From IMG/VR virus record IMGVR_UViG_3300045988_055361: a stretch of DNA of 35,948 nt; one strand, given 5' to 3'. Below are positions 3,008 through 35,442 of the stretch, one piece after another. The position numbers and the translations under genes are program-made. The notes beneath the pieces are model-generated. The model was not told the origin of the DNA, searched no databases, and was given only the letters and a program-made list of their open reading frames with translations. Numbering within the stretch: position 1 is the first letter of the stretch; each line of letters opens with the position of its first letter. Source of the DNA: a virus.

Positions 3008-3406
3008 TTGTACAGAAAGTATCACAACACGAAGACGATTGCTGATGGCATCAAGTTTGATTCAAAGCTTGAAGCTGAACGGTATGCTCAGTTGAAGATT
3101 CTGGAACGTGCGGGGGTTATAAGAGGGTTGGAATTACAGCCTTCTTTTGAGCTTATACCATCATTCAAGAAGAATGGCAAGACATGGCGTAGAACCGTGT
3201 ATAAAGCCGATTTCAGGTACATCTTGTGTGAAGATGATAGTTATATCATCGAAGACGTAAAAGGCTCTACAGCGGTAATTACGGACGTTTTCCGTTTAAA
3301 GCAAAAACTATTCGAATATAAATATCCAGACTACACAATCAGCATCGTTACGAGTAAAGACATCAAGAAGTTTCAAAAAGAAACGAAAGTCGGCAAAATG
3401 TGTTGA
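3008..3406 (+). CDS. DUF1064-family protein (PD-(D/E)XK-fold, Holliday-junction-resolvase-like)
   Basis: KYHNTKTIADGIKFDSKLEAERYAQLKILERAGVIRGLELQPSF...YKADFRY...IEDVKG matches the DUF1064 pattern. TTG at 3008 lies 6 nt after GAGGTGA. The track ORF extends back to 2945. Confidence 0.7.
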   Translation: MYRKYHNTKTIADGIKFDSKLEAERYAQLKILERAGVIRGLELQPSFELIPSFKKNGKTWRRTVYKADFRYILCEDDSYIIEDVKGSTAVITDVFRLKQKLFEYKYPDYTISIVTSKDIKKFQKETKVGKMC

Positions 3407-3431
3407 CTTAATCATATTATGATGATAGTAT
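3403..3431 (+). promoter_or_regulatory. Sigma-70-type promoter upstream of the replication module (TTGACT-N17-TAGTAT)
   Basis: TTGACT at 3403-3408, a 17-nt spacer containing ATATTATGA (shared with the promoters at 4405 and 5514), and TAGTAT at 3426-3431. A TGTTTCAAAAAGAAAC-type box at 3370-3384 precedes it. Confidence 0.5.
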
Positions 3432-3456
3432 TAAAGAGTAGTAAAAATCTACACCA

Positions 3457-3564
3457 CCTATTCAGTAGTTCGCGCCTGCTGAATGGCATGGCATGAAATT
3501 GAATAGGTACAGCAGACCGTATAGCATTTAGAGCGCGAAACTAAATGTTATACGGTTTTCTGCT
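3457..3564 (+). ncRNA. Structured leader with two stem-loops whose loops are mutually complementary (TTCGCGC / GCGCGAA)
   Basis: Hairpin 1 spans 3457-3486: an 11-bp stem with one bulge and one G-T pair, and loop TTCGCGC at 3469-3475. Hairpin 2 spans 3511-3564: 6+15-bp stems, with loop AGCGCGAAA at 3532-3540. The region has no ORF and lies between promoter 3403-3431 and the rep gene. Confidence 0.45.
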
Positions 3565-3620
3565 ATTAGAAAGGCAATCACATGACAAATTGTAAAGCAG
3601 AAAAGAAAGGAAATAAAAAC

Positions 3621-4370
3621 ATGAGCAAAGTAAAAGAAGAGAATTATATCAGCATATCTGGTTGGATGGTTACAAGGCTAGGGCTGAAAGGAAACGAGCT
3701 TCTTGTGTATGCGATCATATATGGATTTTCACAGGATGATGAGACAAGGTTCACAGGCAGTCTACAATATCTTGCGGATTGGACAAATTCAACAAAGCAA
3801 AGCTGCATAAAATGCCTAAAGTCATTGGCTGAAAAAGGATATATCACAAAGTATGAAAAGATCGTGAATGGTGTAAAGTTTTGCGAATATCAAGCAGTTA
3901 AACTTAAGTCTATGGTAGTAAACAAAGTTGAACATGGTATTAAACAAAGTTTAACGGGGGGTATTAAACAAAGTTCACCTAATATTCTAGATAATAATAC
4001 TCTAGATAATAATATAGTTAGTAAGAAAGAAAGAAAGAGCAAGTCGAAATCGTATGATGAACAGATTGCAGGATATACACAAAATGAAGAACTTCAAAAT
4101 GCATTGAAAGCATTTGTACAGATGAGATCATTTATCAAGAAACCTATGACAGAGTATGCTTTTAAACTCATGTTGAAGAAACTTGATGAACTGGGGAATA
4201 ACGACACGACAAAGATTGCTATTCTTAATCAGTCAATAACGCATAACTGGCAAGGAATCTTCCCTTTGAAGAATGAATATACAAAGCAGGAGAAACAGCC
4301 AGAGAAGAAATACGACCAGAATGGCTACGAATCCGAAGAGGATCTCATGAAAATGTTCTACGGTAAATAA
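3621..4370 (+). CDS. Replication initiation / replisome organiser protein (N-terminal winged-helix, DnaD-like C-terminal domain)
   Basis: The N-terminus (LKGNELLVYAIIYGFSQDDETRFTGSLQYLADWTNSTKQSCIKCLKSLAEKGYI) is typical of phage Rep/HTH_36. The C-terminus (AFVQMRSFIKKPMTEYAFKLMLKKLDEL...ILNQSITHNWQGIF) looks DnaD-like. ATG at 3621, with an alternative at 3582. Confidence 0.7.
   Translation: MSKVKEENYISISGWMVTRLGLKGNELLVYAIIYGFSQDDETRFTGSLQYLADWTNSTKQSCIKCLKSLAEKGYITKYEKIVNGVKFCEYQAVKLKSMVVNKVEHGIKQSLTGGIKQSSPNILDNNTLDNNIVSKKERKSKSKSYDEQIAGYTQNEELQNALKAFVQMRSFIKKPMTEYAFKLMLKKLDELGNNDTTKIAILNQSITHNWQGIFPLKNEYTKQEKQPEKKYDQNGYESEEDLMKMFYGK
3919..4014 (+). repeat. Iteron-like direct repeats inside the rep gene linker; candidate origin of replication
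   Basis: TAAACAAAGTT occurs at 3919, 3941 and 3965 (spacing 22 and 24 bp). The last two copies extend to GGTATTAAACAAAGTT. TCTAGATAATAATA follows at 3986 and 4001, and the region is AT-rich. Confidence 0.5.
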
Positions 4371-4436
4371 TGTTTCAAAAAGAAACAAAATGTGATAAAA
4401 AGTATTGCAATCGTTATTATATTATGATATTATAAT
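4371..4436 (+). promoter_or_regulatory. 66-bp promoter module, copy 1: palindromic TGTTTCAAAAAGAAACA box plus TTGCAA-N17-TATTAT
   Basis: Near-identical to 5480-5545. Box at 4371-4387, -35 at 4405-4410 and -10 at 4428-4433. It starts right after the rep stop codon. Confidence 0.6.
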
Positions 4437-4463
4437 GTTGTAGAAAGAGAGAGGTACAAAGAT

Positions 4464-4622
4464 ATGACATACGAACAAGCAGTTGAAAAAGCATACAGAA
4501 ATAGGAACTGGTCAGATGGTTACATCGTTGAAAAAGATGGCGATTACGAAGTCGCTTACAATGGCCATGATCTCGAATGCGCAATGGCTAATGGATGGAA
4601 ATTTGTAGGTTTGAGCAAGTAA
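4464..4622 (+). CDS. Hypothetical small protein (52 aa; below the ORF-track cut-off)
   Basis: ATG at 4464 preceded by AGAGAGAGG. Reads MTYEQAVEKAYRNRNWSDGYIVEKDGDYEVAYNGHDLECAMANGWKFVGLSK and stops at TAA 4620-4622. It fills the gap between the promoter and the loader gene. Confidence 0.5.
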   Translation: MTYEQAVEKAYRNRNWSDGYIVEKDGDYEVAYNGHDLECAMANGWKFVGLSK

Positions 4623-4656
4623 GAAAGAACATGAAAATATTAGGAGGAACAGAAAA

Positions 4657-5478
4657 ATGAAAAGCATATACGATATATTTAAGAATGAAAATCCGACGGT
4701 GGAAGCGATAAAGCGTATGCTTGCCACTTGTGATGAATCGGAGTATATCAAAGGTAATATGATTTACTGCAAAAAATGCAATGAGCCACGAAGAGAATGG
4801 CTGTCGCTGATTGGTGGATATGTTCCAGTGATGTGTTCATGCATGATTGCAGAGCAAAAGAAACAGGACAGACTGGCACGAATTGAAAAATACAGGAACA
4901 CAGGCTTTCCTGACAGAGGACTTCAGAAATGCCGATTTGATAACGACGATCATAAGTCAAAGAAGGCTAGCGACATGTGTAGGAATTATGCCAAAAAATT
5001 TGAAGATTTCAGAAAAGCAGGTAAAGGGCTTATTCTGTTTGGCGGAGTTGGAACAGGCAAGACGTTTCTTGCATCATGCATTGCAAATGAATTGATTGAC
5101 AATGGTATGCCGTGTCTTGTGACAAATTTTGCACGTATCATCAATACATTGCAGGGAATGTATGAAGGAAAGCAGAAATATCTGGACAGCCTGAACGAGT
5201 TTGATCTTCTGGTCATTGATGATCTGGGGATTGAGCGAAACACGGAGTTCGTAAACGAGCTGGTGTATAACATCATTGATGCAAGATACAGAAGCGGAAA
5301 GCCGATGATCATTACAACGAATCTTAAATATTCAGATCTGTACCATACAGAAGATACAAGCAAAGCCAGAATCTACAGCCGTATTATTGAAATGTGTCTT
5401 CCTGTACTTGTCAGCGGAGAGGATAGAAGAAAGAGCAAGATGCAGGACTCAAGACTGATGGATATATTAAATGGTTAA
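4657..5478 (+). CDS. DnaC/IstB-like AAA+ ATPase (helicase loader) with an N-terminal Cys-rich region
   Basis: Walker A (LFGGVGTGKTFLASCIANE), Walker B (FDLLVIDDLGIE) and sensor-like PMIITTNL. The N-terminus carries CKKCN...MCSC. AGGAGG RBS. Confidence 0.85.
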   Translation: MKSIYDIFKNENPTVEAIKRMLATCDESEYIKGNMIYCKKCNEPRREWLSLIGGYVPVMCSCMIAEQKKQDRLARIEKYRNTGFPDRGLQKCRFDNDDHKSKKASDMCRNYAKKFEDFRKAGKGLILFGGVGTGKTFLASCIANELIDNGMPCLVTNFARIINTLQGMYEGKQKYLDSLNEFDLLVIDDLGIERNTEFVNELVYNIIDARYRSGKPMIITTNLKYSDLYHTEDTSKARIYSRIIEMCLPVLVSGEDRRKSKMQDSRLMDILNG

Positions 5479-5479
5479 A

Positions 5480-5545
5480 TGTTTCAAAAAGAAACAAAAT
5501 GCGATAAAAAGTATTGCAATAGTTACCATATTATGGTATTATAAT
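5480..5545 (+). promoter_or_regulatory. 66-bp promoter module, copy 2
   Basis: Box at 5480-5496, TTGCAA at 5514-5519 and TATTAT at 5537-5542. It differs from copy 1 at only a few positions. Confidence 0.6.
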
Positions 5546-5586
5546 AATGCAAAGAGGGAAGGGAAATCCCCAAGGAGGAACGTAAA

Positions 5587-6063
5587 ATGTTAAATGCAGA
5601 AAAGTATAAGGATGAGTTGTTAAAAGTTATCAACGAGAATGAACAAGATTTTATCGCCTTTGATGACAGAGATAATAGCGTTAAAAATTGTAATACAATG
5701 GTATGCAAGGATTGCAAATTTACTAGAACCAAAGCAAAAGCGCTGTGTACACAAACTAAATTGAAGTGGCTTCTGTCTGAATATAAAGAGCCTATCAAGT
5801 TAACTAAATTAGAATATGATATTTTGAAACATCTTTCAGACAATACAAAATATTTGTACATTACAAGAGACAGATGCAACGGGCTTTTTCTTTACGGCAT
5901 GGAGCCAACTAAAGGTGATGGCTATTGGAATGGCAAATATTATGCTGGCATGTCAGCGTTTAATAAATTATTCCAATTCATTCAGTGGGAAGACGAGAAA
6001 CCCACTTCAATTAAAGAGGTTTTAGAAAATTGTGTTGTTGAGAATATTAAGGAGGAACAATAA
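5587..6063 (+). CDS. Hypothetical protein (158 aa)
   Basis: AAGGAGG RBS and a long ORF. No recognisable motif. Confidence 0.6.
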   Translation: MLNAEKYKDELLKVINENEQDFIAFDDRDNSVKNCNTMVCKDCKFTRTKAKALCTQTKLKWLLSEYKEPIKLTKLEYDILKHLSDNTKYLYITRDRCNGLFLYGMEPTKGDGYWNGKYYAGMSAFNKLFQFIQWEDEKPTSIKEVLENCVVENIKEEQ

Positions 6064-6064
6064 T

Positions 6065-6520
6065 ATGCCAAATTGGTGCGTTGGAAATTTAAGAGTTCGT
6101 GGAACAAAAGAAAATATGACAAAATTCATTCTTGAAGGTTTGCATCCTGTTGGATTTCTTGGTGAAGAACATCCAAAGTTATCGGTAAATGAATATGGTG
6201 ACATTGATTCAAATGAAACATGTTGGATTGAAAACACAAGAAGGGGATTTGTAAAAGGTGTAGAAGTTTATCTTTCTGAATATGAAAATGATGAAATCTT
6301 TGTTGCAGTCTTTGATTCTAAATTTGCATGGGGAATTTCAGCAGATGAACTTCTGAAAACATGTAAAAAATATCATGTTGATATGAAAATACATGGTTTT
6401 GAAAAAGAAATGGAATTCAATCAAATCATTGAAATTGTTGATGGAAAAATTCTGAAAGATGAAGAACTTAACTTTGAAGATTATCAATGGGACTGTATCT
6501 GTCCAGACATAGGAGGATAA
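6065..6520 (+). CDS. Hypothetical protein with an MPNWC N-terminus (possibly DUF1281 / Api92-like ferredoxin-like domain)
   Basis: ATG at 6065 follows AAGGAGGAAC. The N-terminus MPNWCVGNLRVRGTKENMTKF resembles the MxNWCxNxLxxxG family seen on phages and plasmids. This is from memory and not verified. Confidence 0.5.
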   Translation: MPNWCVGNLRVRGTKENMTKFILEGLHPVGFLGEEHPKLSVNEYGDIDSNETCWIENTRRGFVKGVEVYLSEYENDEIFVAVFDSKFAWGISADELLKTCKKYHVDMKIHGFEKEMEFNQIIEIVDGKILKDEELNFEDYQWDCICPDIGG

Positions 6521-6526
6521 AAATAG

Positions 6527-7208: not shown

Positions 7209-7224
7209 AAAAGGAATGATACAG

Positions 7225-7389: not shown

Positions 7390-7471
7390 CAATAACAGAG
7401 CGTACAATTACGGCATTGATCACTGTATAAGTGCTATTGAAAAAATTTTAAAAAATGCGAGGTGGCTGAAG

Positions 7472-7735: not shown

Positions 7736-7736
7736 C

Positions 7737-8255: not shown

Positions 8256-8256
8256 C

Positions 8257-8822: not shown

Positions 8823-8993
8823 ATGGCAAAACTTGTGAAAATGAAGTACAAAACGCTCGGTGGTGATATAAAGGTCAACACGTATAATGCGACAATATCA
8901 AAAAAGATTGTGGCTGAATCTGGACTTGATCCTGAAAAAGAAATCACAGTGAAGGCAGAAAACGGAAAAATTATTATCGAGCAAAAAAAATAA
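8823..8993 (+). CDS. AbrB/SpoVT/MazE-like swapped-hairpin DNA-binding protein (56 aa; below the ORF-track cut-off)
   Basis: GAGAGG RBS and ATG at 8823. The segment ATISKKIVAESGLDPEKEITVKAENGKIIIEQKK fits the AbrB-type 'IPKxxxxxLGLxxGDxVxIxxxxGxIII' pattern. Confidence 0.55.
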   Translation: MAKLVKMKYKTLGGDIKVNTYNATISKKIVAESGLDPEKEITVKAENGKIIIEQKK

Positions 8994-9007
8994 AAGAATG
9001 GCAAAGA
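8964..9007 (+). repeat. Direct repeat, left copy (44 bp, 2 mismatches; 35-bp exact core 8973-9007) bracketing the modification cassette
   Basis: GGAAAAATTATTATCGAGCAAAAAAAATAAAAGAATGGCAAAGA. This covers the 3' end of the AbrB-like gene, its stop, a spacer and ATGGCAAAG of the next gene. Confidence 0.9.
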
Positions 9008-9936: not shown

Positions 9937-10631
9937 AACTCTATAACATGAATTGTTTGAATTATCTGCAATCAGAACAATTCGTTAAAGACGTGATGGG
10001 AGGGCAACCTATTATTGTCACCGACCCTCCATTCAACATTGGGTATCACTATAGAACCTACAAAGACATGATGAAAGAGCAAGATTATTTAGACTTCCTA
10101 AATAAAGTGCTCACGATTAATAAAACTCCGTACGTTGTTATTCATTATCCTGAATCACTCTATAAGATTGCATTATTCAACGGTGAGACTCCTTCTAGAG
10201 TCTGCTCATGGGTGTATAACTCGAACACTGCTAAACAACACCGTGACGTAGCTTTCTTCGGTGTAGAGCCTAATTTTAAACAGGTGTTACAACCGTATAA
10301 GAATCCAACGGATAAACGAATTATGAAACGTATTGCGGAAGGCAAATTAGGATGCAAACTCTATGACTGGTGGAATATCAATCAGGTCAAGAACGTGTCG
10401 AAATCAAAAACAAAACACCCTTGTCAAATGCCTGTCGAGGTCATGAAAAATATCGTAGGTGTACTTCCTAAAAACTCCATCATAATCGACCCTTTCATGG
10501 GTAGCGGAACAACTGGTGTTGCTTGTAAAGAATTAGGGTATGAGTTTATCGGATGTGAAATTGATACAGAGTATTTCAATATAGCAAAAGAAAGATTGGA
10601 GAACATTTCGGTCGAAAAAAATCACGAGTGA
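9933..10631 (+). CDS. DNA methyltransferase, N6A/N4C beta-class (N6_N4_Mtase family)
   Basis: The catalytic motif IV (IVTDPPFNIGY) precedes the AdoMet motif I (IIDPFMGSGTTGVACKELGYEFIGCEID). The start overlaps the upstream stop. Confidence 0.85.
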   Translation: MKLYNMNCLNYLQSEQFVKDVMGGQPIIVTDPPFNIGYHYRTYKDMMKEQDYLDFLNKVLTINKTPYVVIHYPESLYKIALFNGETPSRVCSWVYNSNTAKQHRDVAFFGVEPNFKQVLQPYKNPTDKRIMKRIAEGKLGCKLYDWWNINQVKNVSKSKTKHPCQMPVEVMKNIVGVLPKNSIIIDPFMGSGTTGVACKELGYEFIGCEIDTEYFNIAKERLENISVEKNHE

Positions 10632-10635
10632 AAAA

Positions 10636-10679
10636 GGGAAAATCATTATCGAGCAAAAAAAATAAAAGAATGGCAAAGA
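10636..10679 (+). repeat. Direct repeat, right copy (exact core 10645-10679)
   Basis: GGGAAAATCATTATCGAGCAAAAAAAATAAAAGAATGGCAAAGA. It encodes an orphan ...KGKIIIEQKK* tail followed by a 17-codon MAKRTWNRLRRSMKKHE* stub. Confidence 0.9.
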
Positions 10680-11996: not shown

Positions 11997-13031
11997 ATGT
12001 ACGGTATTGATATTTCAAAACATAACGGCAATATTAATTTAGAGCCATATAAAGGGCAGTTTGTAATTATCAGGGTTGGATATGGTCACTTTCATCTGGA
12101 TGAAAAGTTTGAAAGAAACGTGGCTGAATGTAAAAGGTTAGGTATTCCATTTGGGGTTTACCATTATTCATATGCATTAAATGAAGCAGAAGCAGAGGCA
12201 GAAGCAAGAGGAGTGCTTAATGCAATTGCAAAATACAAGAATGATATCAAGGTTGGAGTATGGTTTGATATGGAGGATGCAGACGGATATAAAAAGAAGC
12301 ACGGCTTCAAGTTCTCTAATTCAACAATTGCGCCGATTTGTTTTAAGTTTTGTAAGATGATTGAGGATGCAGGATATTATTCAGGCATTTACACTTCTAG
12401 TTCATGGCTTGACTATGTAAAAGGTTTAAATGATAGATTTGATAAATGGGTTGCTAATTGGGGGAAGAATGATGGTACACAGCACACAAACACTTCTCAA
12501 TATGGAACATTACAGCAGTACACTTCTAAACCATTAGACAAAGATGTAATGTATGCAGACCTTTCAAGATATTCAAGAGGTAACACAACACAACCTCAGC
12601 CAAAACCAATTGATCAGATTGCTAATGAAGTAATTGCAGGGCAATGGGGTGATGGAGCTGACAGAAAGAAACGCTTAACCGATGCAGGATATGACTACAA
12701 TGCTGTTCAGAACGCAGTGAATGCAAAGCTGACAAAGAAATCTAATGAAGAGATTGCACAGGAAGTCATTGCAGGAAAGTGGGGCAATGGTGATGATCGC
12801 AGACAGCGCTTAACAAGTGCAGGATATAACTACACAGCAATACAAGCAATTGTTAGTAAGTTAATGAATGCTAACAAAGCAAGCGAAGCAGTATATTACA
12901 CTGTTAAGAGTGGCGATACATTAAGTAGCATTGCTTCTAAATACGGAACAACATATCAGAAGTTAGCAAAGATCAATGGTATTGCTAATCCAAACAAGAT
13001 ATATACTGGACAGCGTTTAAGAGTGAAGTAA
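11997..13031 (+). CDS. Endolysin: GH25 muramidase + 2 CW_7 repeats + C-terminal LysM
   Basis: GH25 N-terminus ([15 protein letters not shown]...VIIRVGYG...GVYHYSYA...WFDMED). Two CW_7 repeats ([34 protein letters not shown] / [34 protein letters not shown]). LysM segment ([30 protein letters not shown]...IYTGQRLRV). AAGGAGG RBS. Confidence 0.9.
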
Positions 13032-13411
13032 TGGCACAAGGCTATTATTCATGTAGTAGATGTGGGAAGATACATCCGAAAGGATATGTCTGTCATGTAG
13101 ATAAGAAGCACTACAAGTACAGCTACAAAGAATCAAGACTGAGAAGCAAGAGCGCATGGACAGAGAAGAGCAAACAGATTAGAGAAGATGCAAACTATCT
13201 ATGTGAAGTGTGCAAAGACAAAGGCATATATAACTACAGAAATGTAGAAGTACATCACATAGAGAAGTTGAAAGACAATCCAGACTTATGGTTGGATGAT
13301 GATAACCTGATATGCTTATGCAAAGACTGTCACAGGTTAGCTGATGCAGGAATGATTGACAAAGAGTATTTGAAGAAGCTAGCAAGGCAGAGAATAGACA
13401 GGCTTAAATGA
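13031..13411 (+). CDS. HNH endonuclease (terminase-associated type)
   Basis: CEVCKDKG...VEVHHIEKL...DDDNLICLCKDCHR, plus an N-terminal CSRCGK...C. Located just upstream of the cos/terminase region. Confidence 0.85.
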   Translation: MAQGYYSCSRCGKIHPKGYVCHVDKKHYKYSYKESRLRSKSAWTEKSKQIREDANYLCEVCKDKGIYNYRNVEVHHIEKLKDNPDLWLDDDNLICLCKDCHRLADAGMIDKEYLKKLARQRIDRLK

Positions 13412-13506
13412 TCCCCCCCATGGTAACGGGCATTGTCAGGTGTTACACCAAGATGAAACGCTCATACGCAAGAACACAAAAATAATAAAATACTAAGATT
13501 TTTTGG

Positions 13507-13551
13507 AAAAACGGCTAAATTAACGCTATAATGTGAGCATAAGCCGTTTTT
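13507..13551 (+). terminator. Hairpin (10-bp stem AAAAACGGCT/AGCCGTTTTT, 25-nt loop) with a T-run; possible terminator after HNH
   Basis: Stem arms at 13507-13516 and 13542-13551. The loop is unusually large and contains CTATAAT. Confidence 0.35.
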
Positions 13552-13639
13552 TGTTTCAAAAAGAAGCGAAAATCATGCGAAAGTGTTCCACGTGGAACAT
13601 GAGCGGGCGATATAAGAAAGGAAGGGAATAAAAATGTGA

Positions 13640-13821: not shown

Positions 13822-14019
13822 ATGAAAATGACAAATAAGAACCTAAGTTTTAAAAGAATAGGTGCTTCAAGTGCTGCAAGTTGGGCTTGGGGAACATCTT
13901 TAATCATGGGACAACAAATAGCTCAAGAGAAAGGTATAATCGCATGGATTATATGGGCTGTTTGTAATACCTTAACGCTTGCATTATTTGGATGGCTATA
14001 TAACAATAAAAAAATATGA
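13822..14019 (+). CDS. Hypothetical 2-TM membrane protein (65 aa), possibly a truncated fragment of a larger membrane protein
   Basis: AAGGAG RBS 6 nt upstream. Reads GASSAASWAWGTSLIMG...IIAWIIWAVCNTLTLALFGWL. This is the first gene of the AT-rich block. Confidence 0.45.
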   Translation: MKMTNKNLSFKRIGASSAASWAWGTSLIMGQQIAQEKGIIAWIIWAVCNTLTLALFGWLYNNKKI

Positions 14020-14542
14020 AAATAAAAATATATTAGAACCTTTAGAAAATGTTAAATTTGTTGATAGAGATTTATTAAAACCAAATAATTACAACCCAAA
14101 TAAAGTATCAGAACAAAATCTTGAATTATTAGTTCAGTCTATATTAGTAAATGGTTGGACTATGCCAATAGTTATAAGACCTGATTATACAATTATAGAT
14201 GGTTTTCATAGATGGACTGTATCAGGTAGAGAGCCATTAAAAACATTATTAAAAAATAAAGTTCCAGTTGTTATTGTAGACCATAAAGATCATGCAGAAG
14301 ATGTTTATGGAACTATTACACATAATAGAGCGAGGGGAACTCATTTATTAGAACCAATGAAAGCAATTGTGAAAGAATTATTAGATGAAGGAAAATCAAC
14401 AAAAGAAATATGTAAGGAATTAGGAATGAAACCAGAAGAAGTATTTAGATTATCTGATTTCACAAGGGAAGATTTTTTAAAAATGATGATTAAGGATCAA
14501 AAGACTCATAATAAATCATATCAAATAAAAAATTTCAAGTAA
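13979..14542 (+). CDS. ParB/Srx-like nuclease-domain protein (IbrB-like)
   Basis: NYNPNKVSEQNLELLVQSILVNGWTMPIVIRPDYTIIDGFHRW...THNRARGTH. There is no in-frame ATG near the 5' end: TTG at 13979/13988 are the only candidates and there is no obvious SD. It overlaps the upstream ORF by 41 nt. Confidence 0.7.
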   Translation: MHYLDGYITIKKYENKNILEPLENVKFVDRDLLKPNNYNPNKVSEQNLELLVQSILVNGWTMPIVIRPDYTIIDGFHRWTVSGREPLKTLLKNKVPVVIVDHKDHAEDVYGTITHNRARGTHLLEPMKAIVKELLDEGKSTKEICKELGMKPEEVFRLSDFTREDFLKMMIKDQKTHNKSYQIKNFK

Positions 14543-14564: not shown

Positions 14565-14936
14565 ATGGCAAAAATGACTTTAGCCGAACAAGCACAAGAA
14601 ATTTTAAGAATTGCAGAAGAAAGTGGAGTACAAAGTAATTACTTTTTTATAACTACTTTCAAAAGATATCAAATGCAATTAGTTATGTTATATGAATTAG
14701 AAAAATCTATAAAAGATGATGGAATATTAGTTGAAAAAGAATATGTTAAAGGTAGAAAAAATTTATATTCTAGTCCAGCAGTAAAAGATTATAATGCAAC
14801 AACAGATAGTGCAAATAGAACAGTAGCAACTCTTATGAAGATCATTAAAAATTATAATGTAAGTGATACAACCAAAGAAGAAGACCCGCTCATGAAGATT
14901 ATTAATGGTGGTGACGATGATGGCAGTGACGAGTAG
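14565..14936 (+). CDS. terS: Terminase small subunit (P27/Terminase_4-like)
   Basis: AGGAGGTGA RBS. FKRYQMQLVMLYELEKSIKDDGILVEKEY..GRKNLYSSPAVKDYNATTDSANRTVATLMKI fits the P27-family pattern. It lies immediately upstream of, and overlaps, terL. Confidence 0.65.
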   Translation: MAKMTLAEQAQEILRIAEESGVQSNYFFITTFKRYQMQLVMLYELEKSIKDDGILVEKEYVKGRKNLYSSPAVKDYNATTDSANRTVATLMKIIKNYNVSDTTKEEDPLMKIINGGDDDGSDE

Positions 14937-16605
14937 TAAGGCTTACGAATATTGCAAAAGCTCTATCAGGAAGAAAACAACTCCTAAATACGTCAAAAAG
15001 CAGATGCGAGATTGGATGCGAATTGCAGAAGGAAAAAACGCAAAGTACTTTGTATCTGAAAAAAAGGTTCAGCAGATTGAAAACATTCTGAAACTGCTTA
15101 TCATGCCAAAAGGATTGAAAGCAGGACAGTCTATGTATAAGTGTGCCACTGGCTATCAGTGGTTGATCTATACAGCCATGCTATGCACTGTATATCGTGA
15201 CAAGCCGAAAAAGCGAAGATATGAAACAGGGCTGTTGGAAATTTGCAGAAAAAATTTTAAAACGTACACAGTCGGAACAATCTTTATTATTCTGTTTTTG
15301 ACAGAGCCAAGGTTCTCAAAGTTCTTTTCAGTTGCGCCAGATGGTGCATTGTCGAGGGAAATAAAAGAAGCAATCTCAGATACAATCAAAAGCAGTCCGC
15401 TTATATATGAGTACAAAGGAACGAAGCGTTTCAAGCTGTTAAGGGACTACATTAAGTTCAAGCCGAATGAAAACACGTTGATTCCGTTAGCGTACAGTAA
15501 TAACCGTATGGACGGACGTATGCCGAATGCATTTATTGCAGATGAAGTTGGAGCATTGCCGAACGGTTATCCTGTTGAAGCCATGAGGTCTGGACAGCTT
15601 AACGTTGTTAACAAACTAGGGTTCGTTATCAGCACGAAATATCCGACAATCGACAATCCTTTCGAGGACGAGGTTGCATATGCCAAGAAGGTTCTTGATG
15701 GCATTGAGAAAGACGATACTATTTTTGCACTTCTATATGAGCCAGACAAATCAGACTGGGAAACAGACAATCTTGTTTTGAAACAGGCGAATCCTGCGTC
15801 ATTGGAAATCCCTGAAATTTGGAATGATCTTGTAAAGAAAAGAGCAAGAGCCATTGCCATTGAGAACGAGCGAGAAAACTTTGTTACAAAGCACTGCAAT
15901 ATTATCTATCAAGGTCAGGGAACTGAAACATTCATTGATGTTAAAGATGTTCAGGCGTGCAAGGTTGCAGATATTGATTGGTCTGGAAGGGTTGTATATT
16001 TAGGCGTTGACCTTTCAGAATCAAACGATAATACATCTGTTGCCATGGTTTCTGTAGATGATGATGATAACATTCTTGCAGAAAGTTTTGCGTTCATTCC
16101 ATCAGACAGAATCACAGAAAAGACCATATCAGAACGTGTGAACTATCAGGAACTATTGAAGAGTGGAAAGGTGATTGCGTGTGGTGACAGAGTTATTTCT
16201 TATGCGTTTGTTGAACAGTTCATATTGAGTCTTGAGAGCCGTTATAACGTGCAAATTCAGGCAATTGGATATGACAGGTGGAATGCATTGTCTACGGCAC
16301 AAAAACTCGCAAATGAGGGATATAACACGGTTCAGATAAAGCAGTATTCAAGTGTCTTGCATTCTCCGACAAAGAGGATGAAAGAGGCAATCCTTACGCA
16401 GAAATTCAAATACACAGAGAACAAACTTCTTGAAATCAATTATCAGAATGCGAAATGTGCATATGACACAAACAAAAATATGTATGTCAACAAGAAAAAG
16501 AGCAACGGCAAAGTTGATATGGTTGTATCACTTATCAATGCGATTTACCTTCTTGAGCAGGATTATTTCTTGAATGAAGGTGACTTCACATTCCAGATGA
16601 TTTAA
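14905..16605 (+). CDS. terL: Terminase large subunit (Terminase_1 family)
   Basis: 566 aa. GYQWLIYTAMLCTVY...RRYETGLLEICRKNFKTYTVG (the RKNGKS-like Walker A region), IADEVGAL (Walker B) and a C-terminal RNaseH-like nuclease region (YLGVDLSESNDNTSVAMV...GYDRWNA). ATG at 14917/14920 follows GGTGGTGA and may be the true start. Confidence 0.9.
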   Translation: MVVTMMAVTSSKAYEYCKSSIRKKTTPKYVKKQMRDWMRIAEGKNAKYFVSEKKVQQIENILKLLIMPKGLKAGQSMYKCATGYQWLIYTAMLCTVYRDKPKKRRYETGLLEICRKNFKTYTVGTIFIILFLTEPRFSKFFSVAPDGALSREIKEAISDTIKSSPLIYEYKGTKRFKLLRDYIKFKPNENTLIPLAYSNNRMDGRMPNAFIADEVGALPNGYPVEAMRSGQLNVVNKLGFVISTKYPTIDNPFEDEVAYAKKVLDGIEKDDTIFALLYEPDKSDWETDNLVLKQANPASLEIPEIWNDLVKKRARAIAIENERENFVTKHCNIIYQGQGTETFIDVKDVQACKVADIDWSGRVVYLGVDLSESNDNTSVAMVSVDDDDNILAESFAFIPSDRITEKTISERVNYQELLKSGKVIACGDRVISYAFVEQFILSLESRYNVQIQAIGYDRWNALSTAQKLANEGYNTVQIKQYSSVLHSPTKRMKEAILTQKFKYTENKLLEINYQNAKCAYDTNKNMYVNKKKSNGKVDMVVSLINAIYLLEQDYFLNEGDFTFQMI

Positions 16606-16634
16606 TTGCTAAAAACGTGCATTTATGCTAATAT
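16606..16634 (+). promoter_or_regulatory. Sigma-70-type promoter-like sequence between terL and portal (TTGCTA-N17-TAATAT)
   Basis: TTGCTA at 16606-16611 and TAATAT at 16629-16634. A TGTTTCAAATAGAAA box (16648-16662) follows. Confidence 0.4.
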
Positions 16635-16687
16635 GTATGTGTAAAAATGTTTCAAATAGAAAATACTAACGAGGGGCGGTAACGAGA

Positions 16688-25930: not shown

Positions 25931-26784
25931 GCAAATATTATAGAGTGAAAACATTGATGCTGAAAGGCCAGAAAGGCGATACAGGGTACGGTATTTCAAA
26001 TGTTAAGATGAATGATGATTATACTTTAACTATCACAATAGAAAACGGGATGCATTTCAATACACCGCCAATCCGTGGAGAAAAAGGCGAGCGAGGTGCT
26101 TGCATTAGGTCTGCTGAACGGCGTGACGACTACTCACTACTGTTTACTCTTGATAATGGCGAAACAATTGAGACTACAGCAATTCTCGGCAAAGAATTTG
26201 AAAATATCCGCACATTAGAAGCATCTGCAACCAGTGCAAGTAAGATTGCAACTAGTGCTAGTACAAGTGCAAGTGCATCAGCACAGAGTGCAAGCCAAGC
26301 ATCAATTTCTGCAAGCGAAAGTGCAAGCAATGCAAGTACAAGCGCAAGTGCATCAGCACAGTCAGCAAAAAATGCAAGTCAGAGTGCTACAAATGCACAA
26401 GAGAGTGCAATCAGTGCAAGTACAAGTGCAGATACTGCAACATCTAAGGCTACAGAAGCAAGTACATCAGCTACAAAAGCAAAAGAATCTGAGACGAATG
26501 CAAAATCATCAGAAACAAATGCATCTAACAGTGCGAAAGAAGCTGAAGCAAGTGCAGTAAATGCTAAAGCATCTGAAACTAAAGCCGAGGAATATGCCAA
26601 CAATTTACAAAATTCAACTGAAGCCATTAGTCAACTAAAGGAAGATTTAGTTGCAAACTCAAAAGAAGATGCTAAAACTAAACGTAGTTTATCGGCGTTG
26701 TGGGCTTTGAATAATGGTATCTCTTATAGATTTGAAACGGACACAGAAAAAGCCTATCAAAAGGGAAGTTCCGAGTGGTGCTAA
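25927..26784 (+). CDS. Tail fibre, N-terminal segment (short collagen-like triplets plus a Ser/Ala-rich coiled rod)
   Basis: VKTLMLKGQKGDTG, GEKGERG, then about 130 aa of SAxxAxxSA-type repeats. It ends 6 codons after ...TEKAYQK, where the +1 frame continues as EVPSGAKLGAVNKI... Confidence 0.7.
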   Translation: MSKYYRVKTLMLKGQKGDTGYGISNVKMNDDYTLTITIENGMHFNTPPIRGEKGERGACIRSAERRDDYSLLFTLDNGETIETTAILGKEFENIRTLEASATSASKIATSASTSASASAQSASQASISASESASNASTSASASAQSAKNASQSATNAQESAISASTSADTATSKATEASTSATKAKESETNAKSSETNASNSAKEAEASAVNAKASETKAEEYANNLQNSTEAISQLKEDLVANSKEDAKTKRSLSALWALNNGISYRFETDTEKAYQKGSSEWC

Positions 26785-29447: not shown

Positions 29448-29479
29448 AGATATAACATGGCAAGAAAGGAGGTTTAAAG

Positions 29480-31141: not shown

Positions 31142-31142
31142 T

Positions 31143-32861
31143 ATGGCTACATCAGGAACATTCAAAACATCAGCATACGAAGGTGCGTGCTTGCAGTTCG
31201 ACTGGATGTTAAAAAATCAGAGTGTCGCTAACAATCAATCCGTCATTTTATGGACGTTGAAGGGTGCAGGGATTAAGTCGGGTTATTGGTACATGGCAGG
31301 TCCTTTCAAGTGCGTTATAAATGGGACTACAGTTTATCAGTCAAACACAAGGATTAAATTATACACTGGAACGGTTGTGGCATCTGGAGAGCTTGCAATC
31401 GGTCATGATACCAACGGTTCAAAGAGTTTTTCAGCATATGCAGAATGTGCAATTTATACAACGGCGGTGAACTGTAAAGGTTCTGGAAGTTGGAGCCTTC
31501 CAGACATTGGCAGAGCATCAAAGCCAAGCTTAAACACATGGCCGAACAATTCTCCAAACTTTAATATTGGCGATACTATTGCTGTACACATGAACCGAAA
31601 ATCATCAGTATTTACGCATACAGTGGTGCTGAAGTTGGGTTCATACAGTTATACAATCGGAACAGGTGTTACGGATAATATTTCACTTGATACAGACAGG
31701 ATTGCATCGAATCTTTATGCACAAATGCCAAACAGCAATGAAATGACAGGCGAAATTGAGGTCACAACGTACAGTGGCAGTGCGGTTATAGGTACGTCAA
31801 GCTGTACAATCATTGCGCACGTTGTAAATTCTAATCCAACATTTAATGTTGAATATGAGGATTCAAATTCTAAAACGGTTGCAATCACAGAAAACAATCA
31901 GTACATTATCAGGAATAACTCGACATTAAAAATCAGCGTAAGCAATGCGCAGGCATTAAACAGTGCCACATTGAAATCAATTACTGCCGTAGTAAATGGA
32001 AATGCTTATACAGGCACTTTAAGTGGCTCTACAGGCACAATCAATGTCGGTGTGGTAAATGTATCACACGACACTGAAGTGACCGTTAAAATCGTTGATT
32101 CAAGGGGAAATGCGGGGCAGAAAGAGATCACGGTGCTTGTGTATGATTGGGCATTACCAAGTGCAATTATCAAGCTGAACCGAAAGAGCAACTATTATTC
32201 AGAAACCATCTTAAATGTAAATGCAAACTATGCGTCAATCGGTGGGAAAAATGAGGTAACGATTAAGTACCGCACAAAGAAGGTTGCAAACAGCACATTC
32301 AGCACTTACACGACAATTCAGAATAATGTTGATGCAAACTTTACAGCTGATAATTCGTATGAGTGGAATGTTCAGGTTGAGGTTTCCGACAGAATAGGAA
32401 AAACAACATACAATCTGATTCTTCCAAAGGGAATCCCGATTACGTACACGGACATCAAGAAATACAGCTTCGGCGTGAATTGTTTCCCAAAGCACAATAA
32501 CAGTCTTGAAGTGAATGGCGTTTGCATTAGCGGTCAGGTTCTTTACAGCAGTACAAATGGAACAGCAGGAACTGTCACATTATCAGACAGTGCGGAAAAT
32601 TATACTTATCTTGAAATCTTTTATAGATCATCAGGTGATAATGCTTGCGGAAGTGTTAAGGTATTCAGTCCAAATGGAAAACTTGTGCATTTAGGTACGA
32701 TTCACTATATTGCAGATTATGACTATGAAAAGTTTGCTCTTGTGAATGTGGCGGGGTCAATGATCACATTCAGTCAGAATTACCAGATTATTCTTAAAAG
32801 CAACGGATCAACATATTCAGCAGAAAATGCGATTTTTATAACCAGAGTGGTTGGATATTAA
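31143..32861 (+). CDS. Baseplate/tail structural protein (DUF859-like N-terminal domain; candidate receptor-binding component)
   Basis: The last late gene. The N-terminus (TSGTFKTSAYEGACLQFDWMLKNQSVANNQSVILWTLKGAG...INGTTVY...ASGELAIGHDTNGSKSF) resembles the siphovirus DUF859 pattern. From memory, not verified. Confidence 0.5.
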   Translation: MATSGTFKTSAYEGACLQFDWMLKNQSVANNQSVILWTLKGAGIKSGYWYMAGPFKCVINGTTVYQSNTRIKLYTGTVVASGELAIGHDTNGSKSFSAYAECAIYTTAVNCKGSGSWSLPDIGRASKPSLNTWPNNSPNFNIGDTIAVHMNRKSSVFTHTVVLKLGSYSYTIGTGVTDNISLDTDRIASNLYAQMPNSNEMTGEIEVTTYSGSAVIGTSSCTIIAHVVNSNPTFNVEYEDSNSKTVAITENNQYIIRNNSTLKISVSNAQALNSATLKSITAVVNGNAYTGTLSGSTGTINVGVVNVSHDTEVTVKIVDSRGNAGQKEITVLVYDWALPSAIIKLNRKSNYYSETILNVNANYASIGGKNEVTIKYRTKKVANSTFSTYTTIQNNVDANFTADNSYEWNVQVEVSDRIGKTTYNLILPKGIPITYTDIKKYSFGVNCFPKHNNSLEVNGVCISGQVLYSSTNGTAGTVTLSDSAENYTYLEIFYRSSGDNACGSVKVFSPNGKLVHLGTIHYIADYDYEKFALVNVAGSMITFSQNYQIILKSNGSTYSAENAIFITRVVGY

Positions 32862-32917
32862 ATGAAATCATGATATACTATGAGTGCAGTGTTTTCATGT
32901 TCACTGCATTCCTTTCT

Positions 32918-32953
32918 CAGCTTGTCGGAGGTATTCGGCGGGCTGTTTTTTTT
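32918..32953 (+). terminator. Rho-independent terminator of the late operon
   Basis: CAGCTTGTCGG-AGGTAT-TCGGCGGGCTG (11-bp stem including G-U pairs) followed by T8. Confidence 0.6.
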
Positions 32954-32966
32954 ATTTGCAAAATTC

Positions 32967-33000
32967 TATACTAACTTGTCATAGCCTACAGGTTAGTATA
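32967..33000. other. Candidate attP core: imperfect inverted repeat TATACTAACTTGT-N8-ACAGGTTAGTATA
   Basis: Perfect 9-bp arms (TATACTAAC/GTTAGTATA), extendable to 13 bp with 1 mismatch, around an 8-bp centre. It lies in ORF-free DNA between the late terminator and the int terminator. Confidence 0.4.
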
Positions 33001-33011
33001 TGTTAGTAAAG

Positions 33012-33038
33012 AAAAAATCACCGTTGCATTCGGTGATT
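33012..33038 (-). terminator. Rho-independent terminator downstream of int (minus strand)
   Basis: On the minus strand: AATCACCG-AATGCAA-CGGTGATT followed by TTTTTT. Confidence 0.6.
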
Positions 33039-33120
33039 GATTGATGTATATTATAGATGTAATTTCGTTGAAATTGGTCATAAATTCTCCTAGTAAAGGG
33101 CAGGCAGAAATGTCTGCTTT

Positions 33121-34455
33121 TTACTTGAAGAAAACTTCTATTTTGTCAGGTGAAACATGGACAGAATCAAGGACATTGCGCCATAGCGTGCGCTTGTTCT
33201 CACGTGTGAGGTTCTCATATATTGAACGCCAACCGCTGTTCAAAAATTGGTTAAGATGATCAGTACTTTGAGGTTTGAAAGATTCAAGCCTTTTTATTTT
33301 GTCTTCCGTTTCAGCGTACAGACGTTCATAGGTACTTACAGGCATACGTTTTTTAATAAAAATGTAGTTCAAGTTATCAAGCTCTTTTCTTAGCTCTTTT
33401 AATTCCTTTTCAGTTGTGTTTTTTGTTTCAGAAGTAACGCTTGATATTGTGGCTATATGATCTTTAAGCAGGTTATCCAGATTAGACAAAAGATATTTTT
33501 CCGTTGCAAGTTCCGCATAGTGTTTTTTGTGGCTGCACGTATGCACCGAGTGGGCATTGTTGCATCTATAGTAATAATATCGCTTGCCACCTTTTGGATG
33601 GCTCACTCCAACCAGTTTAGAACGGCATTCTGGGCATCTTAAAAGTCCAGTGAATAAATATGTATGTCGTTGTATTCCCGTGCGTATATTGGCTTGTAAT
33701 GCTGTCTGAACGGCATTGTATGTGTCTTTCGTGATGTATGGTTCAGCGTAGTTGGAGTTTCCACGGTATGATCCTGCATAAAATTCATTCTTTAAAATGT
33801 GCATGTATGACATGTAAGGTCGAGACAGTCCGTATTTCTGGTTGACGTATTCGACAGTGTAATGGACTGATTGATGCAGGAGAAATGATTCGAAAATGTC
33901 TTTCACGATTGGTGCCTTTGAATTGTCAATCACAATGCGTTTATTGCCGTTTTCCGTGACAATCCTGTAGCCGAAAGGAACATTACCAGTGATAGGTTGA
34001 CCTTGGGCAATCTTGTATTCAAATACGGCTTTGATGCGTTCAGAGCCTTTTTTTAATTCATGTTCTGCAAGATTGACTTTCAGGTTGAACATAAACAATC
34101 CGTTCGCAGTGGACGTGTTTATATCATCCTCACAAATGGAAATCATGGCGACATTGTTCTGTTGAAGAAGTTCAAGCATTTTATTAGCTTCAAGGACGTT
34201 ACGTGACAGGCGGTCAAGGCGTGTGAAAGCTATGGCATCCAGATTACGAAGATTTGACAGCATGGATTGCAGTTGTGGGCGCTTCATGGTGCTTGCTGAG
34301 TAGCCTTCGTCTACATAAATATGTTGAAGGATATGATCATTGTCGTTGCACCATTGCGTTATTTCTTCGGTCTGTGCCTGTATTGAGTAGCCATATTTCT
34401 TTTGTTCGTCAGTGGAAACACGAGCATATCCTGCCACTCGCAGTTTTTTTCTCAT
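33121..34455 (-). CDS. int: Large serine recombinase (integrase)
   Basis: N-terminal resolvase domain (RVAGYARVSTDEQKKYGYSIQAQ...DEGYSAS...RLDRLSRN), recombinase domain, zinc ribbon (CPECRSKL...YYYRCNN) and a C-terminal coiled coil. ATG at 34455 follows GGAGGG. The track ORF extends back to 34524. Confidence 0.9.
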   Translation of the reverse strand: MRKKLRVAGYARVSTDEQKKYGYSIQAQTEEITQWCNDNDHILQHIYVDEGYSASTMKRPQLQSMLSNLRNLDAIAFTRLDRLSRNVLEANKMLELLQQNNVAMISICEDDINTSTANGLFMFNLKVNLAEHELKKGSERIKAVFEYKIAQGQPITGNVPFGYRIVTENGNKRIVIDNSKAPIVKDIFESFLLHQSVHYTVEYVNQKYGLSRPYMSYMHILKNEFYAGSYRGNSNYAEPYITKDTYNAVQTALQANIRTGIQRHTYLFTGLLRCPECRSKLVGVSHPKGGKRYYYYRCNNAHSVHTCSHKKHYAELATEKYLLSNLDNLLKDHIATISSVTSETKNTTEKELKELRKELDNLNYIFIKKRMPVSTYERLYAETEDKIKRLESFKPQSTDHLNQFLNSGWRSIYENLTRENKRTLWRNVLDSVHVSPDKIEVFFK

Positions 34456-34630
34456 AAAAAATCCCTCCGATTGATTGAAAATAAAAAAAGCAGTCCATAC
34501 TAGCCATTGAAAGGCGGTGAGCATATGGACGCTGAAAGTTTCTATTCTTTGCTGTTTAATCTTTATGCTGAACAGGAAGATCTCAAAATTGAGTATGAGT
34601 TAGACAACTCTTTTTTTTCGACAGATGGTT

Positions 34631-34972
34631 TCAATCAGAAACATTCTTGCTGTCTAGGTACAACTTCATTATCTTCAGATACAGTTCATCCTTCTCAGGT
34701 TCAGGAAGATCGTGAAACAGAGACTCGATACGCAGTGTGAGGTCTGTCGCTTCATCATAGCTTGACGTATCAATTCCAAAGTAAGATATATCAATTCCGT
34801 AAACCTCGCAAAAACGTTTCAAAGTTGAAAGGGTTAAAGACCGCTTTCCAGACTCAATATTTGATATGGCAGGTCTTGAAAGCCCGACAAGTTCAGCAAG
34901 CTCAGACTGTTTAAGGTCACGTGAGGTACGTAGTTCTTTGAGTTTCCTTCCTATTGATTTATTGTTGATCAT
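34631..34972 (-). CDS. XRE-family CI-like repressor (113 aa, no peptidase domain)
   Basis: HTH segment IGRKLKELRTSRDLKQSELAELVGLSRPAISNIESGKRSLTLSTLKRFCEVYGI. It is divergent from the Cro-like gene. AGGTGG RBS. Confidence 0.8.
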   Translation of the reverse strand: MINNKSIGRKLKELRTSRDLKQSELAELVGLSRPAISNIESGKRSLTLSTLKRFCEVYGIDISYFGIDTSSYDEATDLTLRIESLFHDLPEPEKDELYLKIMKLYLDSKNVSD

Positions 34973-35057
34973 TATTATTTACACCACCTAAAAAAGTTTA
35001 TATTTCGATGATAACACAACGTAGCTATTTGAAACAATAAAAAATAATCATCATTTG

Positions 35058-35071
35058 ATGAAAAGTAGTTG
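35058..35071. promoter_or_regulatory. Candidate operator palindrome TCATCA-TT-TGATGA, 7 bp upstream of the cro-side -35
   Basis: Perfect 6-bp arms within the divergent CI/Cro intergenic region. Confidence 0.35.
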
Positions 35072-35078
35072 CAATTTG

Positions 35079-35106
35079 ATTACAAGGGTTTATAATGTAA
35101 TGCATG
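35079..35106 (+). promoter_or_regulatory. Early rightward promoter (TTGCAA-N16-TATAAT)
   Basis: TTGCAA at 35079-35084 and TATAAT at 35101-35106. It is followed by AAAGGGGG and the Cro-like ATG at 35121. Confidence 0.6.
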
Positions 35107-35120
35107 AAAGGGGGCACGAA

Positions 35121-35315
35121 ATGAAAAGAGCAGAATTGAAAGCATTCAGAATTTCAAAGGGTTATACTCAGAAGGATGTTGCAGAAATGCTTGGAATATC
35201 AACGAGCCATTATGCTTGTATTGAGCAAGGAACGCATAATCCTTCTACAGAGCTTGTCAAAGTGTTCTGCAAAGTGTTTGGATATGAATATGCAAATTTG
35301 ATAATTGGGAGCTGA
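35121..35315 (+). CDS. Cro-like XRE-family HTH regulator (64 aa)
   Basis: Reads LKAFRISKGYTQKDVAEMLGISTSHYACIEQGTHNPSTELVKVFCKVFG. ATG at 35121 follows AAAGGGGG. The track ORF starts at 35055. Confidence 0.75.
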   Translation: MKRAELKAFRISKGYTQKDVAEMLGISTSHYACIEQGTHNPSTELVKVFCKVFGYEYANLIIGS

Positions 35316-35319
35316 AAAA

Positions 35320-35442
35320 ATGTTAGATATCGTAGCAGAAATCGTAAAAAGAGGGCAAGCAGAAGAATTAAGAAAAATTATTGAACAGTATGAAATTGAT
35401 GTTTCAAAAAGAAAGGAAAACAAGAAAAATGAAAGGATTTGA
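35320..35442 (+). CDS. Hypothetical small protein (40 aa; below the ORF-track cut-off)
   Basis: ATG at 35320. Reads MLDIVAEIVKRGQAEELRKIIEQYEIDVSKRKENKKNERI and overlaps the erf start. Contains a TGTTTCAAAAAGAAA box. Confidence 0.3.
   Translation: MLDIVAEIVKRGQAEELRKIIEQYEIDVSKRKENKKNERI

Follow-up and report, generated by a model that had tools for sequence, protein, structure and literature searches.

Silencing of a phage genome by one repressor acting at dispersed sites has so far been documented mainly for L5-type stoperators and for the C1 repressor of phage P1. In cluster A mycobacteriophages, the repressor of the stoperator sites is L5 gp71; P1 C1 acts through dispersed asymmetric 17-bp operators that serve many transcription units and overlap promoters. 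Stoperators are scattered in many copies through short intergenic gaps, point in the direction of transcription, and are linked to the immunity repressor (PMC4351075). Cluster O mycobacteriophages carry more than 30 copies of a 17-bp dyad repeat, TGTTCGG-NNN-CCGAACA, of unknown function (PMC4351075), and the chromosomal centromere of the ParB (Spo0J) system, parS, has the consensus TGTTNCACGTGAAACA (PMC7022226). Here, we report a comparative analysis of a 17-bp motif (the box) that recurs in IMG/VR virus record IMGVR_UViG_3300045988_055361 (35,948 nucleotides, analyzed at full length and called the window). From sequence comparison, and with a probability of about 55%, we read the box as a dispersed, oriented, stoperator-like operator set for the phage's own CI-family repressor.

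Box copies, contexts, and conservation

The box has the consensus N-GTTTC-AAAWA-GAAA(C/A)-N in a 6+5+6 layout. Its core form TGTTTCAAAWAG has six exact matches in the window (4371+, 5480+, 13552+, 16648+, 35025 to 35036 on the minus strand, and 35400+), against 0.00 expected from 100 dinucleotide shuffles of the window. A 17-mer search with up to three mismatches adds a copy at 3369 to 3385 (AGTTTCAAAAAGAAACG, two mismatches) and a dyad with a variant center at 34627 to 34643, for a total of seven to eight copies (at least 10 in contig 045331). A preliminary description of the window had listed seven copies, with an exact 14-mer recurring far more often than expected for a 36-kb genome; both points hold, the motif being real and nonrandom, and the 34627 dyad is an eighth, related site. 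The copy that it had placed at 35035 to 35046 lies at 35025 to 35036 (17-mer, 35020 to 35036), and the two sites that it called perfect palindromes are inverted repeats with an asymmetric center (TGTTTC-AAAAA-GAAACA). The exact 14-mer TGTTTCAAAAAGAA, reported there at three independent loci, does recur, at four sites (4371, 5480, 13552, and 35400), but two of these are not independent because both sit in one duplicated 82-nt cassette, present three times (3367 to 3448, 4369 to 4450, and 5478 to 5559). Arm complementarity is full at 4371 and 5480 and 5/6 at 3369 and 34627, and pairing of the inner TTTC/GAAA is retained in ∼80% of contexts. Such dyad symmetry suits a helix-turn-helix (HTH) dimer of the CI/Cro type, whose operators span ∼14 to 18 bp.

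Apart from the immunity-region copy and the 34627 dyad, the boxes lie on the plus strand. The first box (3369 to 3385) falls within the last 12 codons of a resolvase-like open reading frame (ORF; 2945 to 3406). The second (TGTTTCAAAAAGAAACA, 4371 to 4387) starts at the final base of the stop codon of the O-like rep gene (3582 to 4370), and the third (TGTTTCAAAAAGAAACA, 5480 to 5496) lies 1 nt past the stop codon of the DnaC-like loader gene (4657 to 5478). The late box (TGTTTCAAAAAGAAGCG, 13552 to 13568) starts at about +14 of the late promoter, counted from its inferred start. The terL-portal box (TGTTTCAAATAGAAAAT, 16648 to 16664), whose right arm is noncomplementary, is at about +7 of the promoter in that gap, counted likewise, and 7 nt separate it from the Shine-Dalgarno sequence of the portal gene. 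The last (TGTTTCAAAAAGAAAGG, 35400 to 35416) is inside the end of a 40-amino-acid (aa) ORF, 13 nt before the erf ATG, with its 3' end forming the Shine-Dalgarno sequence. The 34627 dyad (GGTTTC-AATCA-GAAACA), which has box arms around another center, overlaps the cI stop codon between cI and int and is kept in ∼40 relatives.

Each of the three cassettes continues past its box with a 17-nt A-rich spacer and a sigma-A-type promoter on the plus strand: a promoter-like TTGACT-17-TAGTAT with a TG extension upstream of rep (3403 to 3431), TTGCAA-17-TGaTATTAT (4405 to 4433, with the box center at about −61), and TTGCAA-17-TGgTATTAT (5514 to 5542). The homologous promoter that the preliminary description saw after four boxes is thus present at 3369, 4371, and 5480 but not at 13552, where the conserved late-region promoter (TTGGAA-18-TATAAT, 13503 to 13532, plus strand) is upstream and a parS-like palindrome (13584 to 13599) follows the box. 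The terL-portal gap has a promoter-like TTGCTA-17-TGcTAATAT (16606 to 16634, plus strand). The spacer A-tracts of the three cassettes are in 10-bp phase with the box center, which may give this stretch the character of UP-element (phased A-tract) upstream promoter DNA, a pattern inapplicable to boxes without a downstream promoter. Across sequence variants, the box is 17 nt from the −35 hexamer in 74/84; the spacer is 16 or 18 nt in four others, 7 nt in three, and 27, 25, and 4 nt in one variant each. The 7- and 27-nt spacers equal 17 nt minus or plus one helical turn, and the spacing fits a face-of-helix relation, although 10-bp indels could also come from slippage between A-tracts spaced by 10 bp.

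More than 40 related contigs retain boxes at orthologous positions, with diverging flanks around a constant core. The core NGTTTCAAAWAGAAA also recurs at nonorthologous gene boundaries: directly past stop codons, directly past terminator T-runs, 1 to 30 nt before ribosome-binding sites, and ∼17 nt before unrelated −35/−10 hexamers. The commonest context in AT-rich lineages is a stop codon, AA, the box, 1 to 10 nt, and a Shine-Dalgarno sequence. Co-orientation with the genes, also noted earlier, extends to relatives, with all 75 of 75 exact matches in terL-oriented loci (1.15 Mb) on the terL strand.

Several other meanings of the box were rejected. A mini-ORF starting at the box ("MFQKE...", with an ATG or TTG overlapping the upstream stop codon) is removed by the base preceding TG at the late site, which may be A, T, C, or G, and by 10-bp deletions that shift the frame. 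An intrinsic terminator lacks a U-tract past the box, and the window has few plus-strand terminators. A promoter for an alternative sigma factor or a phage RNA polymerase, or an antisense −35 (TTGAAA), is at odds with the lack of any conserved −10 at a fixed distance; inspection of the large ORFs found no RNA polymerase gene, and sigma factors were not systematically searched. Iterons or an origin for the window's Rep do not account for boxes in L245, L246, L247, and L251, which are without this Rep. As for a general bacterial regulon, a 22-mer (box plus AAAATG) had only two genome matches, one inside a coding sequence and one upstream of an alcohol-dehydrogenase-like gene in a Eubacteriales metagenome-assembled genome, and 17-mer matches in metagenomes were mostly scattered singles. 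In this Eubacteriales genome (L100; JAUNGJ010000050.1, ∼2065 to 2086, minus strand), 4 nt separate the exact 22-mer from the Shine-Dalgarno sequence, and the N terminus of the gene is, by eye, iron-type alcohol dehydrogenase-like; no phage genes were detected within the 2.5 kb examined, and this copy could be chance or a host copy. A literature search for the box sequence found nothing relevant.

The CI-family repressor as candidate reader

The proposed box binder is the product of the CI-like gene at 34631 to 34972 (minus strand, 113 aa), a generic XRE-type HTH protein with the recognition helix SRPAISNIESGKR. We compared 109 loci of this CI family (1.85 Mb) with 45 control loci with related structural genes (0.55 Mb). 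The core had 444 matches in the CI-family loci and 0 in the controls; 372 matches were on the lytic strand and 72 on the cI strand, the latter made up of the immunity hybrid and int-upstream copies. Box and CI family occur together in at least 10 mosaic lineages. Lineages with CI proteins 62 to 74% identical and other replication and structural modules have two to five boxes per early region, and phages with unrelated repressors have 0. All 14 further CI loci (G+C content, 0.26 to 0.39) have one to four boxes each, all on the lytic strand. The association also predicted in the other direction: L062/L063, known only by three structural-gene boxes, encode a CI homologue and have a fourth box past cro, and L091 and L077, contigs first known by a box or by a box plus parS in structural genes, encode CI homologues as well.

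Half-site sequence tracks the recognition helix. The helix SR(P/S)A(I/M/V)(S/C)N is near-invariant and accompanies GTTTC arms in at least eight lineages. One metagenomic lineage with the helix ARSTMSN (L249 and L402 to L404) has no GTTTC boxes, and its equivalent positions hold GTTGGC-AAATA-GCTAAC or GTTGC-AAATA-GCAAAC. In the cultured Butyrivibrio phage Bo-Finn (helix KRSTISN), seven or eight dyads of 17 bp take the form TGTTGC-AATAT-GCAACA or variants of it, so that R(P/S)A goes with GTTTC and RST with GTTGC. Each Bo-Finn early cassette has two dyads 31 bp apart, the proximal one overlapping the −35 hexamer, and another dyad covers the −35 of P_R; hybrid GTTGC/GAAAC sites occur too. The published Bo-Finn paper makes no mention of a repressor or of the dyads.

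Most lineages examined have box-like dyads in the cI-cro intergenic region, and L405 and L406 have boxes on either side of P_R (upstream and in the cro leader). In the window, this region holds a hybrid dyad at 35020 to 35036 that reads TGTTTC-AAATA-GCTACG on the minus strand and CGTAGC-TATTT-GAAACA on the plus strand. The minus-strand match described earlier as lying in the cI direction is confirmed, but the orientation of a hybrid dyad is ambiguous, and the equivalent sites in L245, L248, and L173 have the A-rich center on the lytic strand. A direct repeat of the 35021 site, GTTGCAATTTGATTACA (35068 to 35096, plus strand), lies 47 bp away and overlaps the P_R −35 (TTGCAA, 35069 to 35074; TATAAT, 35091 to 35096).

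Two observations concern the surroundings of this switch. In L004 (5800 to 6140) and L254 (10006), cI is lost (int too in L004) through deletions that end at the 3' edge of the immunity box, with AGCTA(C/T)G microhomology at the L254 junction; both are probably virulent derivatives. Between int and cI, a lytic-strand ORF of 30 to 37 aa occurs in three lineages with gene calls (the regions are 34525 to 34640 in the window, L402:10342 to 10455, L405:1345 to 1437, and L406:10382 to 10477). A box (the 34627 dyad in the window) stands at or just past the cI stop codon there, and in L406 to L408 a second box faces int.

The preliminary description had proposed an operator for a dimeric phage regulator that serves every transcription unit, naming CI, Cro, or the HTH protein of ORF1374. 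Co-occurrence, helix covariation, and the cI-cro dyads lend the operator comparative support and point to the CI-like protein; ORF1374 is excluded because it has no homologue in other box-bearing lineages, and Cro is less likely, as set out below. We infer both the binder, CI, and its effect, either repression or a roadblock. On this model, the XRE repressor would bind the 17-bp box as a DNA site, reading the strong half-site GTTTC and the A-tract center jointly with a second, weaker half-site. Genome-wide, these sites stand 5' to transcription and translation units. The repeated early promoters have one ∼61 bp before them, and the late and terL-portal promoters have one a few bases past them; others separate a stop codon from the ribosome-binding site that follows, or lie around the cI-cro switch and where cI meets int. 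Box-bound CI might silence the lytic genes of a lysogen in either of two ways: through cooperative, helically phased binding with weak promoter-proximal half-sites, or by blocking elongating RNA polymerase in an orientation-dependent manner, as at the stoperators of mycobacteriophage L5. Roadblock or cooperative silencing is proposed by analogy, since the lack of core-promoter overlap, the many promoterless intercistronic boxes, and the strict orientation all match L5 stoperators.

Several findings weigh against an operator read by CI. The co-occurrence is confounded, in that Cro, the serine integrase, and tail-fiber (host-range) genes are common to the same lineages, so the pattern could also arise from a host factor or from Cro. 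The covariation amounts to two lineages (two independent switches), and the Bo-Finn GTTGC/GAAAC hybrids show that half-sites are not strictly distinct. Nor does a symmetric dimer operator, in its simple form, account for the strict sense-strand orientation. No box copy in the window overlaps a core promoter, a detail that does not fit the operator first proposed: the 35020 to 35036 site ends 32 nt before the P_R −35, and P_R itself has only the half-site-like GTTGCA over its −35 and no full box (Bo-Finn does have such overlap). Only 84/244 distinct variants have a strong downstream promoter; the remaining two thirds or so, being without one, would need a roadblock or looping role, which is an analogy only. 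The relative L042 (2253 region) has a diverged late-site dyad, GCTTT-AAAAA-GAAGC, and not GTTTC-AAAAA-GAAGC(G); its arms are still nearly self-complementary.

The parS composite and rival readers

The palindrome that follows the late box (TGTTCCACGTGGAACA, 13584 to 13599) starts 15 nt 3' of it and is of the parS type, with 14/16 matches to the consensus and symmetric changes (T>C and A>G); relatives carry TGTTCCACGTGAAACA, an exact fit. The box itself is outside the parS definition, with 17 bp and an AAAWA center against a 16-bp palindrome. A composite of box, 13 to 15 nt, and parS occurs in at least four nonorthologous slots: the late leader in the window's family, upstream of the tape-measure gene (L091 and L077), 3' of cI (L412), and at position 3852 of L425. 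The tape-measure slot holds a box alone, a box plus parS, or parS alone, by lineage. Sites of the form TGTTCCACGTGGAACA or TGTTTCACGTGAAACA are found, besides the window, at L091:15141, L077:13717, L412 ∼4745, L425 ∼3820, and L409 (Bo-Finn) ∼1960 to 1975, the last a perfect parS before the late region. In the low-GC metagenomic CI lineages examined, parS is preceded by a box 13 to 15 nt upstream (degenerate in L077). The high-GC relatives L085, L088, L090, and L094 have two to three perfect parS sites, two of them inside a gene, and no boxes. Box and parS centers are ∼31 bp apart (about three helical turns), the spacing of the paired operators in Bo-Finn. A speculative extension, to which we give low probability, is that box and host-type parS form one unit in which CI-bound boxes set a one-sided boundary, or co-load, beside a host ParB (Spo0J) clamp site and couple prophage silencing or genome fate to the host partition machinery; the boxes would also be polar roadblocks, and phages of Firmicutes (the inferred hosts) would have evolved a stoperator system independently.

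The same composites could mean that a host protein reads the box, either ParB at a degenerate half-parS or, for example, the C-terminal domain of the RNA polymerase alpha subunit at phased A-tracts, with the CI link reflecting shared hosts. The left half, TGTTTCA, is a parS half-site, the exchange of box and parS within one orthologous slot and the composites at nonorthologous slots fit, the A5 tract of the box is in 10-bp phase with the A-tracts upstream of the promoter, and the CI lineages also have tail-fiber genes in common. We nevertheless consider a host reader unlikely. The box phages retain a single core although their G+C contents span 0.26 to 0.41, which implies diverse hosts; outside the phage group, neither bacterial genomes nor metagenomes are enriched for the exact box; and boxes are absent from related phages that lack the CI family. 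The conserved core AAAWAGAAA, moreover, exceeds anything parS-like, and the box center is 5 nt against 4 nt in parS. The window's own ParB-like protein (ParB_N domain, 13979 to 14542) was rejected as a binder; it is of the DGxHR type and not a canonical ParB, and it is absent from many relatives that have box and parS.

The Cro-like HTH protein (35121 to 35315, plus strand, divergent from cI), alone or with CI as in lambda, might read the box instead and lower early transcription and cI expression in lytic growth. The gene adjoins cI and is present in every lineage, box-like dyads lie near the cI start and the P_RM region, and the cro leader of L405 and L406 contains a box. The recognition helices of Cro, however, differ strongly among lineages with the same invariant core (STSHYAC, SESHYSG, SKNHYSN, TPSQYSK, and AKITYVN), whereas that of CI is near-invariant, which makes Cro the weaker candidate and its role as reader rather unlikely.

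Improbable, too, is a function at the level of the transcript, where a small hairpin or a linear RNA motif would serve processing, stability, nut/boxB-like antitermination, or translational control of the downstream cistron; an RNA-level hairpin was the alternative offered in the preliminary description. The box is on the sense strand (the ambiguous immunity dyad aside), its commonest AT-rich context runs from stop codon to Shine-Dalgarno sequence, the right-arm variants GAAGCG, GAAGCA, and GAAACG still pair through G·U, and the L249-type arms GUUGGC/GCUAAC pair too. The predicted hairpin, on the other hand, reaches −3.8 kcal/mol at best and −0.3 or 0 for the 16648, 35400, and immunity copies, the stem being missing or only 4 bp in three of seven copies, and the right arm is variable and under no pairing constraint. 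Boxes upstream of P_R between the divergent cI/cro promoters, and those right after strong terminators and before promoters, would not be transcribed in the sense direction, so the conserved transcribed stem-loop between promoter and terminators that marks nut/boxB-like sites is lacking. A 17-nt spacing to the −35 with variants of one helical turn is a property of DNA, and no Rfam match was found for the box. Together, the weak hairpin, free right arm, positions that would escape sense transcription, fixed spacing, and lack of an Rfam match place the function at the DNA level.

The least probable account, which we all but dismiss, has no trans-acting partner and treats the box as conserved junk or as a linker of homology where modules meet, spread through recombination and through copying of the 82-nt cassette: three window copies do come from one duplicated cassette, homology breakpoints between relatives are 4.5-fold enriched near boxes, and variable genes follow the boxes 3' of rep and loader, but most breakpoints lie at gene boundaries without boxes, and cassette-free boxes in many lineages keep only an 11- to 14-nt core within unrelated flanks, which argues for selection on the core itself.

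Genome context and comparison with known systems

The first 79 bases of the window (1 to 79) exactly repeat the last 79 (35870 to 35948), so that it represents a circularly closed contig with a unit of 35,869 bp (G+C content, 37.5%); erf spans the circular junction. The gene set is of the temperate siphophage type. It includes genes for Erf, an exonuclease, SSB, NinB, and a resolvase; terL (14905 to 16605), terS, portal, and tail genes, a holin, an endolysin, an HNH endonuclease (13031 to 13411), and a serine integrase (33121 to 34524, minus strand) are also encoded, and no tRNA genes were found. Among deposited phages, no close DNA-level relative was found; terL and the antireceptor are ∼76% and ∼59% identical, respectively, to those of Lactobacillus delbrueckii group-b phages, which are without boxes, and CI has a 41%-identical counterpart in Butyrivibrio phages Bo-Finn and Arian. 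Near relatives number in the dozens in IMG/VR. Several of these start ∼85 nt 5' of the late box, and in L038 (1 to 33) an Illumina adapter is joined to GGAAAGAACACAAAA at the left-end point; this shared start and the adapter fusion indicate a cos site, where the genome physically ends, in the interval from the HNH gene to the late promoter, with the left end at ∼13466 to 13471 and the promoter ∼35 nt inside it.

A 50-nt direct repeat (94% identical; 8958 to 9007 and 10630 to 10679) flanks a pair of genes (1.67 kb), one for a PAPS-reductase-like protein and one for an N6/N4 DNA methyltransferase, which suggests a cassette acquired or duplicated via recombination. In-gene tandem repeats comprise two 135-nt CW_7-type cell-wall-binding repeats in the endolysin gene (12603 to 12834) and three Ser/Ala-rich repeats of ∼75 to 84 nt in a tail protein gene (26235 to 26452).

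If CI binds the boxes, a large uncultured group of gut and rumen siphophages, whose cultured relatives are Butyrivibrio phages, would run genome-wide, orientation-dependent silencing from one small XRE repressor. The box would then be a sequence signature for immunity groups in metagenomic phages, a handle on early, late, and integrase expression in phages that carry it, and, with its helix, a natural pair for HTH specificity (Ala/Thr at helix position 3 with GTTTC/GTTGC). The recurrent box-parS composite raises the question of whether temperate phages recruit the host ParB clamp.

Among known systems, the chromosomal parS has outer arms identical to those of the box (TGTTTC...GAAACA), but it has 16 bp and ACGT at its center, whereas the box has 17 bp and a 5-nt A-rich center and is asymmetric and oriented. 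The cluster O repeats share the 17-bp length, TGTT...AACA arms, an A/T center, and a mostly intergenic location, in phages that also encode a protein with a ParB-like domain; unlike the box, they have invariant arms, follow no orientation rule, and are not near promoters, and their phages are not obviously temperate. The CI/Cro operators of lambdoid, 434, and P22 phages resemble the box in the 17-bp dyad, the Cro/CI (XRE) HTH candidate, the cI-cro intergenic copies, and, in Bo-Finn, dyads over the −35, but in the window most boxes stand well away from the switch, no core promoter is covered by any of them, and their orientation to the genes is fixed. P1 C1 offers one immunity repressor with operators scattered genome-wide; those operators, however, overlap promoters, and C1 is not known to be related in sequence to the window's CI. 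As with the stoperators of L5 and cluster A, the box is a short motif in many copies within short intergenic gaps of lytic operons, and its orientation follows transcription (372 versus 72 matches in CI loci; on terL-oriented loci, without exception). It differs in having 7 to 10 copies per genome against ∼23 to 36, a partly symmetric 17-bp dyad against a 13-bp asymmetric site, a small XRE-type CI of Firmicutes-type phages as its candidate repressor, and a P_R without a full copy in the window. On the CI reading, the box system would be a variation on the dispersed-operator and stoperator systems already known, built on a motif that is strongly nonrandom and evolutionarily maintained.

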